This document shows, one piece after another, positions 32,343 to 37,823 of a stretch of 37,823 bases of DNA. Origin of the DNA: a virus (lineage: Duplodnaviria > Heunggongvirae > Uroviricota > Caudoviricetes); the IMG/VR virus record IMGVR_UViG_2917855067_000005, one strand, 5' to 3'. The stretch's first letter is position 1; the number at the start of each line of letters is the position of its first letter. Both the position numbers and the translations under genes were made by a program. Below the pieces are notes generated by a model, which did no database searches, was not told where the DNA came from, and saw nothing but the letters and a program-made list of their open reading frames with translations.

Positions 32343-32415
32343 AATATGTACCTCCGGTATACATATTACATGATTGAAATGAACCTTCAAGATACTTGTA
32401 CCTTAACGGTACAAG
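32343..32415. promoter_or_regulatory. Right operator region with divergent promoters for cro and cI
   Basis: Two palindromes with TGTACC half-sites: AATATGTACCTCCGGTATACATATT (32343..32367) and CTTGTACCTTAACGGTACAAG (32395..32415); minus-strand TTGAAG-16 nt-TAATAT overlaps the first. Confidence 0.65.
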
Positions 32416-32430
32416 GGTTTTAATTTCGTT

Positions 32431-33105
32431 ATGAAAACAATCCATGACATCCGGCGGTCTAACGCCAGAAAACTGAGAGATGGTGTTGGCGGGAATTCTT
32501 CCTTTGCCACTATGATTGATCGCGAGCCAACCCAGACCAGCAGGTTTATGGGAGATGGTGCTACTAAAAATATCGGTGACAGCATGGCACGACACATCGA
32601 AAAATGTTTCGACCTGCCTGTCGGATGGCTCGATCAAGAACACCAGACAACGAACATCACAAAAAAACCTGATGTTTCAATCACTAATAAACAAATCACA
32701 TTAGTCCCTGTCATATCATGGGTACAGGCCGGAGCATGGAAAGAAGTTGGATATTCTGAGGTTGATTTGAGCACAGCAGAAACGTATCCCTGCCCTGTAC
32801 CCTGTGGGGAAATGACTTATATCTTGCGGGTGATAGGTGATTCAATGATTGATGAGTACCGCCCGGGAGACATGATTTTTGTCGATCCTGAAGTACCTGC
32901 CTGCCACGGTGACGACGTTATTGCATTGATGCACGATACAGGTGAAACCACCTTCAAAAGGTTGATAGAAGATGGGACACAGCGTTATCTCAAAGCGTTA
33001 AACCCAAACTGGCCTGAGCCTTACATTAAGATCAACGGTAATTGCTCTATAATTGGAACTGTGATTTTCTCAGGAAAACCAAGAAGATACAAAATCAAAG
33101 CCTAA
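32431..33105 (+). CDS. cI: CI-type prophage repressor (HTH plus S24/LexA-like peptidase domain)
   Basis: 224-aa ORF; C-terminal LRVIGDSMIDEYRPGDMIFVDPE ... resembles the autocleavage domain; divergent from cro. Confidence 0.85.
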   Translation: MKTIHDIRRSNARKLRDGVGGNSSFATMIDREPTQTSRFMGDGATKNIGDSMARHIEKCFDLPVGWLDQEHQTTNITKKPDVSITNKQITLVPVISWVQAGAWKEVGYSEVDLSTAETYPCPVPCGEMTYILRVIGDSMIDEYRPGDMIFVDPEVPACHGDDVIALMHDTGETTFKRLIEDGTQRYLKALNPNWPEPYIKINGNCSIIGTVIFSGKPRRYKIKA

Positions 33106-33117
33106 TCAATGTTTATG

Positions 33118-33140
33118 AACCTGCTTCGGCAGGTTTTTTT
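33118..33140 (+). terminator. Intrinsic terminator after cI
   Basis: AACCTGC-TTCG-GCAGG followed by TTTTTTT; perfect stem with UUCG tetraloop, 13 nt after the cI stop. Confidence 0.75.
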
Positions 33141-33144
33141 ATAC

Positions 33145-33172
33145 TTGACAATGTACCATTGAGATACATAAT
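33145..33172 (+). promoter_or_regulatory. pL-like promoter with operator half-sites
   Basis: TTGACA - 16 nt - CATAAT, with TGTACC operator half-sites overlapping the spacer and -10. Confidence 0.55.
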
Positions 33173-33339
33173 GTACCCAAGAGAAACAACAAACAGGCAG
33201 GACGCCCACGAAGTAGCCGCCTGGGGCATATGAAGTCCAGGATGATTCGTTAGCAACAAAAAAGCACCCTACAGGACGCTTAGCTCTTTAACAATCTGGT
33301 CCCCATCAACAAGTAACTGATAACTTGAGGAGGTGTGAA

Positions 33340-33546
33340 ATGCACAAAACAGAACCAAAAATCGTCGCGCCCGGATACACAAATGAGGAAATTTACGAGT
33401 GGATGGCAAAGAAGCTGGCAGCTATAAACCAGCTTCGTGAAGTGCTGTCTTATCGACAGGAAACAATAGACTCCTTAAAAAAACTGGATCAGGAAATCAC
33501 GGTTTTATCACAGGATGTTACTTTAGATATTGTGCAGACAAATTAG
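33340..33546 (+). CDS. Small hypothetical protein, first gene of the leftward early operon
   Basis: ATG at 33340 preceded by GAGGAGG RBS; the track's 33325 start is a TTG inside the RBS; 68 aa. Confidence 0.45.
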   Translation: MHKTEPKIVAPGYTNEEIYEWMAKKLAAINQLREVLSYRQETIDSLKKLDQEITVLSQDVTLDIVQTN

Positions 33547-33952
33547 GATCCCATTCATTTTCGTCAAAATCATCAAAGTGATGAATTTGTGATCTCCAGT
33601 CTCGATAATCTAAAAATTTCTGGGCGGTTACGCTTATTTTATCAAGCGTGAGTTCATCCTGAATTGAAAGAAGAAGTTCATCAAATTTCATCTCATTAAT
33701 CTGTTTTGGCATCCAGTGATGCTTCATCAGAATAAGGTGAACCAGAGCTTTTTTCCCATTCAACTGATTATAGGGAGTGCCGAATTTCTTCCGGTGCTCA
33801 TGTAAGACAAGGTCCAGAAGAGTAAGTAATGTTGCCCTTGATTCAACTTTGCTTATTTCGACTGATGACACTACCCCACTGATTTCAATGCCCCGATACT
33901 TTCCAACATTTTCACAGTGGGATTTGTACAGCGTATAGATATTACCGGACAT
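33518..33952 (-). CDS. Hypothetical protein (AT-rich moron, antisense to the pL operon)
   Basis: 144-aa ORF, visibly AT-rich, convergent with and overlapping the 3' end of the small plus-strand gene; no family recognised. Confidence 0.55.
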   Translation of the reverse strand: MSGNIYTLYKSHCENVGKYRGIEISGVVSSVEISKVESRATLLTLLDLVLHEHRKKFGTPYNQLNGKKALVHLILMKHHWMPKQINEMKFDELLLSIQDELTLDKISVTAQKFLDYRDWRSQIHHFDDFDENEWDPNLSAQYLK

Positions 33953-34238
33953 TTCTTTTCCTTTTGCGTTGTTGGGGATAACCAGATTAACCGAATCCTT
34001 GTTGTTGGGGAATAACCAGGTCCACCTCGCCTGATGTGGCTAAAAGCAGGCACATAACTGCTAAGTATTTTCAACCAGAGAGAATCCTTAGCGTTGTGGT
34101 GAATGCGGCTCAGCGCACGCGGGTTAAGGTTGAGGCTGACAGTCGACCTTCTGTGGATACCCACCCGTCTGGTGTGCAACCTTCGCCAGGCACCGGGAGG
34201 CACCCGGCACCACAACTTTATGCTGTGTGTAGTCTTGA

Positions 34239-34373
34239 CGGTACCAGTTTGTACCCTTGCTTCCGGCTGGTACCGTCCTTTTTACAAAACAGAGAAGAGC
34301 ATCACCGGACGACGGGCTCATAACCCAATCCATCCGGGGCGGCAGTCATCGCAGGTGTTCTTCTCTGTTTTGT
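34239..34373. other. GC-rich non-coding region with two strong inverted repeats (candidate structured RNA or recombination accessory element)
   Basis: Perfect 9-bp inverted repeat CGGTACCAG / CTGGTACCG (34239..34275) and a 16-bp arm pair ACAAAACAGAGAAGAG / TTCTTCTCTGTTTTGT (34284..34299, 34358..34373); only junk-like overlapping ORFs. Confidence 0.4.
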
Positions 34374-34446
34374 GGAGAAACTAACCGACCTTGCAGGGTC
34401 GATATGCAGAGACTGAACAGTTATTGAAGTAATAAGGTGATCGCAT

Positions 34447-34692
34447 ATGCTTCAAATGTTAACTCTTGAAGAATGGGCTTCTGAAAAATACAGAAGTAAT
34501 CCTCCAAGCGTTTCCACGTTGCGTCGTTATGCTAAGCAGAATTTGTTTTGTCCACCGGCAATGAAACAAGGTCGGTTATGGCGAGTGCGTGAGGACGCCG
34601 AGTTAGTTGGAGAGCTGGTAACACCAGTAATTAAGAAAAATGACTCATTACTTTTGCAACGGATTTTGAGTGATGGCAGCCAGACCGCGTAA
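34447..34692 (+). CDS. xis: Excisionase
   Basis: 81-aa ORF immediately upstream of and overlapping int; MLTLEEWASEKYRSNPPSVSTLRRYAK pattern of lambdoid excisionase-like proteins. Confidence 0.7.
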   Translation: MLQMLTLEEWASEKYRSNPPSVSTLRRYAKQNLFCPPAMKQGRLWRVREDAELVGELVTPVIKKNDSLLLQRILSDGSQTA

Positions 34693-35801
34693 GAATAATG
34701 TTTCAGTCCCTAACTTATATCCGCTTTATAGCCGAAAGGTAAATAAAGTCTATTGGCGGTATAAGCATCCAATAACAGGGAAATTCCATGCTTTGGGAAC
34801 AAACGAAACTGAAGCTATCGCTATTGCCACTGAAGCCAATACGCGCCTGGCTGAACAAAGAACCCGGCAGATTCTGGCCATCAGTGACAGGATCGCAACC
34901 AGCAAAGGGAAAGCAATCACAACGTCAACTTGGTTAGATCGCTATCAAGCGATCCAGAATGACAGGCTGAAAAAGTGGTGATATAAAGCTCAACACCTAC
35001 AAGCAGAAAGCCAAACCTGTCTCCTTACTTAGAGAACGGGCAGGATTGAAGCTAATTTCAGCTGTTGATGTCCGGGATATTGCACAATTACTTGATGAGT
35101 ATATTGCCGCTGGGCAACCGAGAATGGCACAAGTAGTTCGCTCCGTCCTGATTGATGTTTTCAAAGAGGCGCAGCACTACGGAGAAGTACCTCCTGGCTA
35201 TAACCCTGCATTAGCTACTAAACAGCCAAGAAGAAAAATTACCCGACAAAGGCTGAGCCTCGAAGAATGGAAAAAAATATTCGATATCGCAGATGCCAGC
35301 CATCGTTACATGGGAAATGCCATGCTGCTAGCCTTGGTTACTGGTCAGCGGTTAGGCGATATTTCACGTATGAAATTTAGCGATATTTGGGATGATCATC
35401 TGCATGTCATTCAGGAAAAAACCGGGAGCAAAATCGCCATCCCGCTTTCCCTGCGCCTCAATGCGATTAACTGGAGTTTGCGCGATGTAGTAGCCCGTTG
35501 CCGTGACTATGCTGTCAGCCCATACCTTGTACATTTTTTTCGTACTACTTCACAGGCTGAACGCGGCGCACAGGTTAAAGCCAATACCTTGACTATGAAT
35601 TTCAGTAAAGCAAGAGATTTAGCAGGAATTGACTGGGGTGAAGGTTCTCCCGCAACATTTCATGAACAAAGGTCTTTATCAGAACGTTTGTATAAAGAAC
35701 AGGGTTTAAATACACAAAAATTACTTGGTCATAAAACACAACAACAAACCGATCGTTATCATGACGATCGAGGCAAGGGATGGAGCAAAGTAGCGTTGTG
35801 A
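34670..35801 (+). CDS. int: Tyrosine integrase (lambda Int family), interrupted by a 1-nt frameshift in an A5 run (34980..34984)
   Basis: Track ORFs 34670..34981 (arm-binding N-terminus) and 35046..35801 (catalytic domain ... HEQRSLSERLYKEQ ... LLGHK ... DRYHDDRG); removing one A gives ...NDRLKSGDIKLNTYKQ.... Confidence 0.85.
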
Positions 35802-35951: not shown

Positions 35952-37823
35952 TTAAACCACGATTCCTAAATGGCATGGTTGCTCACCTTCAAGAGAGGCT
36001 CTCATTAAGGTCAGGAATTGGGATAAATTATTTCTAAAATCAGAACCACTATCTTCCGCCATTCCTGGAGCTAACGAACTTACTAATAAAGCAGGTGTGA
36101 TAGGTCTTGTTCCGTAAATACTATATTTCTCATGATGGAAATGACGAGTCTCGCAAGATTCACTTGGATTTACAATCATCAGCCCAGAAGACAAACTTTT
36201 TCCAGTATTTTTTTCATGTATACCATGAAGGTATTTCATAGTGAGTTCGGGGAGGTAATGTGTAAACGCTTTTTTACTGGTAGTATACTTTGCATCTAGG
36301 ATTAATTGCCTTTGTTCACCCGTAGGCGTTGAAATGCAAACTATCATGTCTGGTGATCGATTAGCATTAGGACCTTGCTGCCCTCTAGGCTTCAATTTAC
36401 CTTTCACGGTGTCTAGAGTCCACCCTTCGGAGTTAATTAGGGAAGCCCCAAAAGAGCTTGCATGATCATGAGTCCAAATTTTCATCTCATAGATAAGCTG
36501 TACAGTAAAACCTCCCCAGTCATACTCAAAATTATTCCGTTCTATTACAGGGCCATTCACTAGCTCAAACTTCATGCCCAATAGCCGTACGTTGTCAAAG
36601 TGATACTTAATTAAAAATAATAGGTAGTATTCAAAAAGTTTTGGGATACTTTGTATCGAAAATAGCTCTTCCTGTACGCTCCAATCAGGTGCGCCGAATC
36701 TATGCCAAGCAATTATTTTATGAAAAACCTTCTGATAATGAAGGTTGTATCTAGCTTTTCTTGTGAATTGCGGAGTGCCAATGATAATATTAGTTACAGG
36801 AACCCGCTCATCAAAAGTTCGTTTCAAACGCTGTAGATTAATAATCAATTCTTTACATCGTGAAACTTTATTTTTATTTACAACCTTTGCAAACTTACTT
36901 AGCTGTGCAAAAAATGAAATATACCCGGATATGCTCGACTGTTCACGAATTCTGGAAGAAGGATACTCTTCAAGCCGACTCAAGATCTCCGATGCAGCAC
37001 GCATTAGGGATACTATAAAGCCATGGACAACTTGATTTTCATAAATATTCAAATCCTCTTTTAGATGATTTTCTAATATTCGTTCCGATGAATAATATGT
37101 GCCATCTAGTTCCAATATTGCGCGGGTCTGATCATTAACTGGATAAAGGTTGTCAGAGTTTTCTGAAATCCAAGCTAAAGTGGTGTCATCGATAACAGAG
37201 TTTTCGGATACTACGACAACTTTAGTCACTGGTGTAAGTTTTGCGATTGGCCTGGAATAGATATTTGGAATCTCGGTCATTAACAATAAAACATTTCGTT
37301 CGAGTTGTTCAATCAAAAAGCTAACCGATCTTTCTCCTTCTTTGAATCCTGCATTTATACGAGTTACTCTAAAAAATGCTGCTAGAGCATCATTATCATG
37401 ACACGCTAAGAAATCGAGCATTTTTTCTGCCCGTTCAGCATTCAATTTTTTGGCAAATACTTCAACCGGAGAATATTGTTCAATAATAACTCTTTCGCCA
37501 ACTCCATCGATTTTTGTTACTATCGATAGCTCTGCCATACCATAATAGTTATGAAAAAAGCATTCGTATGTTGATCGATATATAGATTTTGGTTTCCATT
37601 CGTAAATCCATAGGCCATCGTATTCTTTGCTAGAAGTTATTCCTATTTCATTTTCATGAAGACATAAAAAAACATCATCCAACGGAACAGATGCTTCCAG
37701 CCTAAACTCTAGAGCTTCGTCTTCCAGAAAATAAATCTGATTAGAGGACTGAAGACCAAAGGGAGTCAACCCTATCTCTAGACCACTTCTCCTGCCGTTT
37801 ATTATCTTCGCAGTAAACCTCAT
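35952..37823 (-). CDS. Large hypothetical protein with C-terminal PD-(D/E)xK-like nuclease motif (candidate restriction/defence component)
   Basis: 623-aa intact ORF starting at the last three bases of the window; visibly AT-rich; motif SPDMIVCISTPTGEQRQLILDAKY fits PD ... (D/E)xK spacing. Confidence 0.65.
   Translation of the reverse strand: MRFTAKIINGRRSGLEIGLTPFGLQSSNQIYFLEDEALEFRLEASVPLDDVFLCLHENEIGITSSKEYDGLWIYEWKPKSIYRSTYECFFHNYYGMAELSIVTKIDGVGERVIIEQYSPVEVFAKKLNAERAEKMLDFLACHDNDALAAFFRVTRINAGFKEGERSVSFLIEQLERNVLLLMTEIPNIYSRPIAKLTPVTKVVVVSENSVIDDTTLAWISENSDNLYPVNDQTRAILELDGTYYSSERILENHLKEDLNIYENQVVHGFIVSLMRAASEILSRLEEYPSSRIREQSSISGYISFFAQLSKFAKVVNKNKVSRCKELIINLQRLKRTFDERVPVTNIIIGTPQFTRKARYNLHYQKVFHKIIAWHRFGAPDWSVQEELFSIQSIPKLFEYYLLFLIKYHFDNVRLLGMKFELVNGPVIERNNFEYDWGGFTVQLIYEMKIWTHDHASSFGASLINSEGWTLDTVKGKLKPRGQQGPNANRSPDMIVCISTPTGEQRQLILDAKYTTSKKAFTHYLPELTMKYLHGIHEKNTGKSLSSGLMIVNPSESCETRHFHHEKYSIYGTRPITPALLVSSLAPGMAEDSGSDFRNNLSQFLTLMRASLEGEQPCHLGIVV

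Follow-up and report, generated by a model that had tools for sequence, protein, structure and literature searches.

A Plus-Strand RNA Unit with a Divergent STnc100-Type Core at the Head of the Early-Left Operon of an e14/SfV-Type Prophage of Escherichia coli

The Interval between the ECs1072-Family Gene and xisE

The window analysed here is a stretch of 37,823 nucleotides (IMG/VR record IMGVR_UViG_2917855067_000005), the end of which belongs to a lambdoid E. coli prophage of the e14/SfV type, namely to its right arm; the last 7.9 kb of the window are 99.3% identical to NZ_CP122454, the closest genome. Between an ECs1072-family gene on the minus strand (33518-33952) and xisE on the plus strand lies the interval studied, 33953-34446, which contains two hairpins. 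Both are real and non-random, and both are parts of one conserved plus-strand RNA unit (34063-34378), from which the ECs1072-family gene diverges and whose first downstream gene is xisE. The unit is composed of a 5' hairpin, a five-helix core, a linker, hairpin 1 and a second module formed by hairpin 2. The interval is a divergent, mis-annotated subfamily of a known prophage RNA family, accompanied by a module that lies outside Rfam.

A preliminary description of this DNA, made from the sequence alone, had reported a GC-rich interval with two stem-loops, and these features are found at the positions given, with a GC content of 0.53-0.56 over 34000-34400 compared to 0.34-0.47 in the flanks. Folding of the whole 494 nucleotides (nt) gave a z-score of -4.4, with none of 100 shuffles being as stable, while hairpin 2 (z=-7.2 on the plus strand) and hairpin 1 (z=-3.9) were each matched in stability by none of 200 shuffles. 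Hairpin 1 is a perfect inverted repeat with a 19-nt loop as described, but its stem measures 11 base pairs (bp) and not 9 (34237-34247 with 34267-34277). Hairpin 2 displays 18-nt arms (34284-34301 and 34356-34373) with 94% complementarity and 54 nt between them; as RNA, it forms a 25-bp stem (34279-34303 with 34354-34378).

The same description stated that neither hairpin is followed by a U-tract and that they are not simple terminators, which is incorrect for hairpin 1, since C-TTTTT-AC directly follows it (34278-34285). On the transcribed strand, hairpin 1 (34237-34283, plus strand; GACGGUACCAG / CUGGUACCGUC) has a G+C-rich stem of 11-13 bp, a loop that is unusually large for a terminator, and a terminal C-UUUUU, and thus looks like an intrinsic terminator. 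It was missed by a consensus terminator scan because that scan permits only loops of 3-8 nt. Homologues carry other hairpin-plus-U-tract terminators at this place, such as GCCCGC...GGGCGGGC-CUUUUUUU in phiES15.

A Divergent STnc100-Type Core

At gathering thresholds, the covariance-model scan proposed in the preliminary description returned no Rfam match in the whole window. A permissive scan over 33500-34800 (1.3 kb), however, aligned RF02076 (STnc100) to 34063-34286 on the plus strand over its full length (model positions 1-206 of 206), including the terminal hairpin and U-tract, with 44.7 bits (E=4e-8), below the curated gathering threshold of 47 bits. Other copies of the subfamily described below as A-type reached 29-41 bits. 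We assign the first part of the unit (34063-34283) to the prophage small RNA (sRNA) family STnc100/PasD/EcOnc27 as a divergent, A-type member.

The match starts with a 5' hairpin (AAGUAUUUUC...GAGAAUCCUU, 34063-34089, plus strand), at the place of which the ST64B, phiES15 and P1 homologues have a hairpin of different sequence. It is followed by the five-helix core (34093-34216, plus strand), which consists of a closing stem pairing GUUGUGGUG (34093-34101) with CACCACAAC (34208-34216), the junction AAU, H1 (34105-34120), a stem GGGU/ACCC around variable hairpins, H4 (34164-34191), and the invariant H5, CCGGG-AGGCA-CCCGG (34193-34207). The closing stem, H1, H4 and H5 as well as the junction motifs GGUGAAU and CACCGGGAGGCACCCGGCACC are core features of RF02076 that were all found here.

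Homologues were gathered from annotated phages and from IMG/VR by two motif scans, and they form two subfamilies with CACCGGGAGGCACCCGGCACC as a common 3' motif. The canonical B-type begins with GGUGAAUCCCCCUGUGCGGNGGGG, while the A-type, to which the window belongs, begins with GGUGAAUGCGGCUMAGCGCACGCGGG. A covariance model (R1) was built from alignment A1, comprising only 39 distinct A-type cores; it recovered canonical STnc100 cores at 40-70 bits, which means that A- and B-type constitute one family. In the family alignment A4 (93 sequences), compensatory changes occur in 17 of the 27 core pairs, and 95.8% of cells are paired as compared to 81.8% in shuffles and at most 49% in slid-partner controls, A4 being fitted to the covariance model, which favours the structure. 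The independent MAFFT alignment of the A-type cores (A1) revealed 99.2% of cells paired and five compensatory pairs. H1 differs in sequence between the subfamilies with its pairing kept (CG in 77 sequences, GC in 14), and compensatory versions of the closing stem are present in P1 (GUUGCGGUG/CACCGCAAC) and phiES15 (AUUGUGGUG/CACCACAAU). The core is the least polymorphic part, the 5' hairpin and the tail the most. The polarity of the unit is that of the plus strand, as evidenced by the U-tract after hairpin 1, the G-U pairs, and the fold of hairpin 2, which, due to its G-U pairs, is much better on the plus strand than on the minus strand (z=-4.3).

These pairings also bear on the accessory recombination sites that had been listed among the options for the interval. 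Stems that are kept through compensatory changes and G-U pairs, both of which matter only in plus-strand RNA, argue for RNA rather than for DNA-binding sites, and this option has no support. Sites acting at the DNA level (accessory sites for Int, Xis or IHF, operators, or recombination hot spots at mosaic boundaries) would agree with the modular nature of the region, of which phages share different sub-blocks, and with the direct repeats at 33963-34026 and the conserved inverted repeat GCCTG-N13-CAGGC upstream of the core. However, attP is expected downstream of int and not here, and the unit is also found in the P1 ban operon and beside kil-gam, far from any int; we regard a role as DNA sites as very unlikely.

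A structured sRNA, another of the options in the preliminary description, is supported by the full-length sub-threshold match, the covarying five-helix core, the plus-strand polarity, and relatives that are bound by Hfq or seen on Northern blots (PMC8550237, PMC12711010). STnc100 overlaps the Hfq-bound EcOnc27 (sRNA103 in EDL933) downstream of stx2B (PMC12711010), and PasD1 and PasD2 (EcOnc13, EPEC) were reported to be related to STnc100 by shared ancestry (bioRxiv 10.64898/2026.05.13.724894). Both PasD RNAs have a length of ~173 nt, are Hfq-dependent and have been confirmed on Northern blots; the PasD1 seed, UGUGAG, is located just 5' of the terminator, and the coordinates of the RIL-seq chimeras are given in the supplement of that study (PMC8550237).

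Like STnc100, the window RNA aligns with the whole model, shows GGUGAAU and CACCGGGAGGCACCCGGCACC, keeps the closing stem, H1, H4 and H5 by covariation, has the order core, linker, intrinsic terminator, and is carried by prophages of enterobacteria. Differences concern H1, which reads GCGGC...GC-CGC in the window but CCCCC...GGGGG in canonical members; the genomic place, an early-left operon or the P1 ban operon for the A-type as opposed to the late region for canonical copies; and the surroundings, since A-type copies have no visible consensus promoter of their own and possess a companion module, whereas canonical copies form arrays with as many as four members, every one of which has a promoter to itself. 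Compared with PasD, the candidate seed of the window RNA likewise adjoins the terminator, but tail and seed are different (UGUGAG versus GCUGUGUGUAGUC), and PasD is located near Q, lpxR or lysis genes and expressed in lysogens.

The arrays of canonical copies comprise four cores in locus L133 (2322-3354, minus strand) and three in locus L218 (12193-13544), each within ~1-1.4 kb. The L133 array is flanked by a DNA methyltransferase gene on one side and, on the other, by a long open reading frame (ORF) whose product, read by eye, is a candidate sialate esterase; the copies are preceded by promoter-like sequences, the clearest of which, TTGATA-N16-TACAAT, stands before copy 3. The 3' tails of the array copies all differ, and two of those in L133 end in clear terminators.

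The Annotated Gene ymfH

K-12 e14 carries the unit with 91.5% identity over window positions 34022-34700. In K-12, the element (~1201192-1201413 of NC_000913.3, minus strand) is annotated as ymfH (b1142, 1201069-1201380); this copy has a damaged H5 (CACCGGGGGCACCCGACACC) and an STnc100 score of 29.2 bits. Other genes annotated over the interval are a "frameshifted hypothetical protein" in the closest genome and gp34/gp35 in SfIV. The earlier remark that only junk-like ORFs are present therefore holds in substance, though annotators do call genes here.

The existence of these coding sequences, namely b1142 in K-12, gp34/gp35 in SfIV, and a frameshifted pseudogene in the closest genome, would be in line with a genuine protein YmfH, 103 amino acids long in K-12 and disrupted by a frameshift in the window. 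This explanation is largely refuted already, and we give it hardly any credence. The reading frame is not conserved: the ymfH-equivalent frame encodes 75 amino acids in 78 loci, 103 in only four, and 12-120 in the rest. Its 133 variable sites are distributed over the three codon positions as 45/44/44, showing no third-position bias, and length variants are not multiples of three. Neither Pfam nor NCBIfam matched any ORF in the interval. K-12 ymfH starts at a GUG located within the closing stem, SfIV gp34 results from read-through that fuses it to a 120-amino-acid yfdP-like gene, and the frameshift called by PGAP corresponds to one extra G inside the second module. Judged from these sequence features, ymfH and the SfIV ORFs look like annotation artefacts over a structured RNA.

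In published data, the ymfH RNA of K-12 is induced by SOS/AZT, as a bulk induction (PMC11228462), while Reg-Seq found an active start site for an intE-xisE-ymfH operon in only one gentamicin replicate (PMC12132413). Overexpressed ymfH was furthermore listed among the prophage triggers of the retron-Sen2 toxin RcaT (bioRxiv 10.1101/2020.06.22.160242). With the K-12 "y-gene" ymfH re-read as a structured RNA, the SOS induction of this copy and the listing of its clone as a retron-toxin trigger make the function of the family directly testable in a standard laboratory strain.

The CAU Module

The second half of the unit, referred to as the CAU module (34279-34378, plus strand), is hairpin 2, whose 25-bp stem opens into a three-way junction. 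Arm a has GGG-CUCAUAA-CCC at its end (34314-34326, with CAU at 34319-34321, plus strand), and arm b is a short variable hairpin. No family of Rfam 15 covers 34279-34378. The stem sequences of the two P1 units are unrelated, yet both units adopt this three-way junction. Covariation is seen in arm a (CCGGA/UCCGG, CCUGUA/UACAGG, CGUA/UACG), and compensatory changes are also observed in the outer stem. Lambdoid copies alone show weak covariation, with two compensatory pairs at 95% mean identity, and the case for this structure rests mainly on the P1 units. Among the loci fetched, the module was present with A-type cores only, ~200 nt downstream of the core in SfV/e14/ST64B-type phages and 60 or 340 nt upstream of it in P1-like plasmids.

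The tip of the module, CGGGCUCAUAACCC (CGGGCTCATAACCC, 34313-34326), is identical over 14 nt to positions 29-42 of the initiator tRNA metZ, i.e., to its anticodon arm, including three G-C pairs and CAU; none of 2000 shuffles of the interval reached 14 nt, the comparison being a post hoc one in which many tRNAs could have matched. Every variant of the module keeps GGG/CCC and UCAU unchanged, with covariation in the stems that support them. Homologues differ at loop positions 32, 37 and 38 (A37 is replaced by U in ST64B). Compared with the anticodon arm of tRNA-fMet, only three bp of the five-bp stem are kept and no tRNA fold surrounds them; ARAGORN found no tRNA or tmRNA in the window, and Rfam no tRNA at E<=10 in 33500-34800.

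On these grounds, one might imagine a phage RNA acting on factors of translation or of host defence: it could mimic the anticodon arm of the initiator tRNA or serve as its decoy, for example against tRNA-fMet-cleaving VapC-type nucleases or by binding the 30S P site or IF3, or else be a trigger to which a defence system responds. The metZ identity with its three G-C pairs and the invariance of GGG/CCC and UCAU amid covarying stems speak for such a role, as do the retron-Sen2 listing of ymfH and, read by eye, a Shine-Dalgarno-like GGAGG displayed by H5. Nevertheless, the post hoc nature of the tRNA match, the variation at positions 32, 37 and 38, which is unlike a strict anticodon-loop mimic, and the failure of ARAGORN and Rfam to recognize a tRNA-like fold weigh against it; the retron trigger could instead be an artificial peptide, and a literature search on phage mimics of the initiator tRNA anticodon arm gave nothing relevant. 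Taken together, we rate this role as improbable. Equally slim is the chance that the whole unit is a modular phage RNA device, combining an STnc100-type core with an initiator-tRNA-like CAU hairpin, which engages the translation or tRNA machinery or anti-phage defence and is not an ordinary base-pairing sRNA. If this were true, the RNA of the device would be the cause of the "ymfH" triggering of retron-Sen2, as a structured phage RNA sensed by defence or acting as a decoy for it, and the widespread STnc100 family would gain a function.

Between the module and the downstream gene stands a small hairpin, CGACCUUGCAGGGUCG (34386-34401, plus strand), which differs in sequence in other lineages, with ACCGCCCCUACGGGGGCA and UGGCGGUGGCAACCCGCCA as variants.

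Occurrence in Lambdoid Prophages and P1-Like Plasmids

The interval is matched by 2781 of 5426 complete E. coli genomes, about half. In SfIV, mEp460, ST64B, 118970_sal3, phiES15 and e14, the place of the unit, or of what remains of it, is after the immunity region and before the first early-left genes, and in SfIV, ST64B, phiES15 and K-12 e14, it is found 0.4-0.9 kb downstream of pL-like promoters and ahead of these genes. Here, a candidate pL (TTGACA-16-CATAAT, 33145-33172, plus strand) with 11 of 12 consensus matches directly follows the terminator of the repressor gene; it is the best promoter-like site of the region and stands ~0.9 kb upstream of the RNA unit. ST64B shows the same order, a terminator followed by TTGAC.

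Which part of the region is shared depends on the phage, the sub-blocks being 34022-34406, 34077-34385, or only 34235-34406. At the junction 34406/34407, SfV/SfIV-type homology, followed in those phages by yfdP-like genes, ends and the e14-type xis leader begins; this junction is also present in K-12 e14 and several IMG/VR contigs. mEp460 (locus L003, 2353-2493) and other phage records that match only 34235-34406 keep the terminator hairpin and the CAU module at ~95% identity, with a decayed core remnant of 27.8 bits upstream. Terminator and second module thus persist even where the core was lost. In the region upstream of yfdP in K-12 CPS-53, the element is absent.

In the ban operon of P1, two to three tandem units, each consisting of a CAU module and an STnc100-type core, are located between upl and tciA, beside the P1 tRNA genes (locus L004, 2100-2660, corresponding to ~69.7-70.2 kb of NC_005856; locus L095, 2108-2591). 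The P1 record has no RNA feature annotated at the units. On the other strand, they are overlapped by upl, as annotated, together with the promoters predicted for it. The A-type cores of P1-like plasmids have no terminator, and 36-40 nt separate them from the start codon that follows, which is that of tciA, of a small membrane protein or of ban. Elsewhere, the unit is followed by yfdP-like genes (SfV, SfIV, ST64B) or by kil (phiES15).

This diversity of neighbours shows that the unit is not specific to int-xis. The suggestion of an antitermination or retroregulatory element for int-xis therefore is not supported as it was worded, the unit preceding unrelated genes elsewhere and having no similarity to HK022. 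A weaker version is plausible: 164 nt ahead of xis, the terminator and the long duplex are bound to influence how transcripts read through and are processed.

HK022 carries the antiterminator RNAs putL and putR, and lambda has RNase III hairpins in the N-leader and in sib. The window unit resembles the put and nut sites as well as N-leader and sib in that its structured RNA closely follows pL and precedes terminators, and its long duplex next to int/xis recalls the RNase III-dependent control of lambda. It has no boxA/boxB, and unlike sib, which is located downstream of int, it lies upstream of xis. A put-type RNA of HK022 was rejected as a relative, the whole HK022 genome giving no R1 match at E<=1 and only chance words of 12-17 nt in blastn.

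The main competing explanation is a cis-acting leader, in which a factor is sensed, or RNA polymerase or ribosomes are modified, by the core, possibly together with the CAU module, which so decides on passage of the terminator or on translation start for the early-left genes, here xis-int, as an attenuator, a riboswitch-like or a put-like element. We consider it an unlikely explanation, albeit one with several points in its favour. The unit is always placed between a pL-like promoter and the first downstream genes and ends in the terminator that comes first in the operon; the combination of a conserved core of several helices with a variable terminator behind it resembles an aptamer with its expression platform; and A-type copies are without a dedicated promoter. 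In P1-like plasmids, the proximity of terminator-less cores to start codons adds to this, and, as read by eye, the Shine-Dalgarno sequence of tciA is covered by a hairpin, AACCUUAUU...AAUGAGGUU, with which the 3' strand of the P1 closing stem overlaps. Where copies stand in tandem, adjacent units are able to pair with each other around the CAU module through their closing-stem strands. On the other hand, the HK022 genome, which carries put, is not matched, the unrelated downstream genes argue against a metabolite riboswitch, no clear antiterminator pairing was found for hairpin 1, and canonical relatives are stand-alone RNAs with their own promoter and terminator that bind Hfq and targets.

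A DicF-Like Reading of the Unit

DicF, a small RNA of the Qin dicBF operon, is set free through termination or through processing by RNase E/III. The best-supported reading of the window unit is that of a DicF-like, structured sRNA of the Hfq type at the head of the early-left operon of an e14/SfV-type prophage, terminated or processed, and we hold it to be somewhat more probable than all others combined. After prophage induction, or from a putative local promoter, transcripts, in the former case from the pL-like site, would stop at the terminator (34283) and yield a stable structured RNA or, as with DicF, a shorter processed 3' fragment. This RNA may act in trans together with Hfq through a seed in the linker. 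The linker, UUUAUGCUGUGUGUAGUCUU (34217-34236, plus strand), comprises 20 nt from core to terminator, is largely unpaired in the predicted fold, and contains the candidate seed GCUGUGUGUAGUC (34222-34234, plus strand), proposed by analogy with PasD1. The motif GCUGUGUG(U/A)AGUCUU of the linker is common to E. coli, Salmonella ST64B and Cronobacter phiES15, whose terminators differ. Transcripts reading through would carry the CAU module, the 25-bp duplex of which is a plausible substrate, and a likely site, of RNase III according to the predicted fold; a cut there would separate the sRNA from the downstream mRNA. Standing between pL and xis-int, terminator and duplex would also limit and process the xis-int message, and together could set its amount. 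What the data demonstrate is the structure of the unit, its family, strand, lack of coding capacity and conserved position, along with the published bulk induction in K-12; Hfq binding, the seed, the 5' end, cleavage by RNase III and an influence on xis-int are inferences.

Embedded in a lambdoid early-left operon just downstream of the immunity region, the unit has the same setting as DicF, which the 5' arm of hairpin 1 resembles. The mEp460 variant of this arm, UUUGGCGGUACCAGUUU, agrees at 16 of 17 positions with DicF, UUUGGCGGUAUCAGUUU. Loop and 3' arm differ, however, DicF has no STnc100-type core, and the DicF model (RF00039) reaches only 19.9 bits here and 28.5 bits in K-12 e14 at a cutoff of 48.

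Several observations weigh against the reading as a DicF-like, trans-acting sRNA. The RF02076 score falls short of the curated threshold. Over the full set of sequences, several linker positions are variable, and within the window, the only complementary target of the seed is the element itself. Expression as a discrete Hfq-associated sRNA is on record for the relatives EcOnc27 and PasD, while the record for the A-type subfamily consists of the bulk induction of K-12 ymfH RNA. A consensus sigma-70 scan detected no promoter-like site in 33953-34062, and neither in the window nor in ST64B or phiES15 does a consensus sigma-70 promoter immediately precede the A-type core. Canonical copies, by contrast, possess one, as in L133; the RNA may consequently exist only within a longer transcript. 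Finally, the terminator-less P1 copies abutting start codons fit a cis role better than a trans-acting sRNA.

By this assignment, the STnc100/PasD family, until now known from late regions of Stx-type and Fels-type prophages, is extended to early-left operons, with an A-type subfamily, missed by the Rfam threshold, which heads the operons of e14/SfV/ST64B-type prophages and occurs in tandem in the P1 ban operon. In addition, a companion RNA module with an initiator-tRNA-like loop, outside all Rfam 15 families, is defined here.

Upstream Sequences and Neighbouring Features

The left edge of the conserved unit is marked by a block, CTCGCCTGATGTGGCTAAAAGCAGGCACATAAC (34026-34058, plus strand), with the above-mentioned inverted repeat at 34029-34051. 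An identical block is present upstream of the core in 53 SfV-like loci and in phiES15-like Cronobacter loci, in the latter ~30 nt further from the core. It displays a weak sigma-54-like GG-N10-GC, seen by eye, and a weak sigma-70 match only; it might be a weak or specialised promoter, an operator, or the 5' end of the RNA.

Two copies of a direct repeat, GTTGTTGGGGA(A)TAACCAG (33963-34026, 34 nt from start to start), sit between the start of the ECs1072-family gene and the RNA unit, and there is a weak third one (34082-34104) that coincides in part with the core's 5' strand. SfIV and Kati have these repeats, while SfV, SfII and K-12 e14, where homology starts at 34022, do not; the core model R1 does not detect them, and their motif had no relevant occurrence elsewhere. 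In sequence, they look like the core's 5' strand (GCGUUGUGGUG) joined to a P1-type H4 loop (GGAUAACCAG), a likeness that suggests decayed extra copies of the unit (degenerate core fragments) or, alternatively, promoter or 5' untranslated region elements of the ECs1072-family gene.

With regard to gene order, the arm begins with the cro-like gene ymfT on the minus strand, followed by the gene for a LexA-like repressor, ymfK/cohE (32431-33105, plus strand), and its terminator (33117-33136, plus strand). An ORF of 68 amino acids lies between the candidate pL and the ECs1072-family gene. Beyond the interval, xisE (34447-34692; Pfam Exc, PF07825, E=6e-12; named xisE in the closest genome) is followed by intE (34670-35801) and, outside the prophage, by a DUF2357 gene.

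A perfect operator-like palindrome, CTTGTACC-TTAAC-GGTACAAG (32395-32415), is located between ymfT and the repressor gene, and ATGTACC is present twice in the pL-like promoter region (33145-33185). The palindrome and the ATGTACC copies are probably repressor operators. A repressor operator near the RNA unit was rejected, as the repeat CTTGTACC-N5-GGTACAAG does not recur there.

Among other phage RNAs considered as relatives, IpeX and the DLP12 nmpC-essD region were discarded, no STnc100-type match being obtained there, and svsR (3' end of cI of the icd-integrating NC-SV prophage) and HnrS (66 nt, late genes) belong to different loci. In ST64B (locus L005, 21-97, minus strand), the Hfq-binding RNA isrK was matched with 64.3 bits (cutoff 50) in or beside the regulator gene sb41.

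Compared to NZ_CP122454, intE of the window has one extra A in an A-run (~34970, within 34965-34981), by which it is split into two ORFs (34670-34981 and 35046-35801); either the integrase gene is truly a pseudogene or the homopolymer was misread in sequencing. Directly beyond intE, a 623-amino-acid DUF2357 protein and another large ORF are encoded (35952-37823, minus strand, and beyond), which may represent a defence-type gene pair at the junction of prophage and host.

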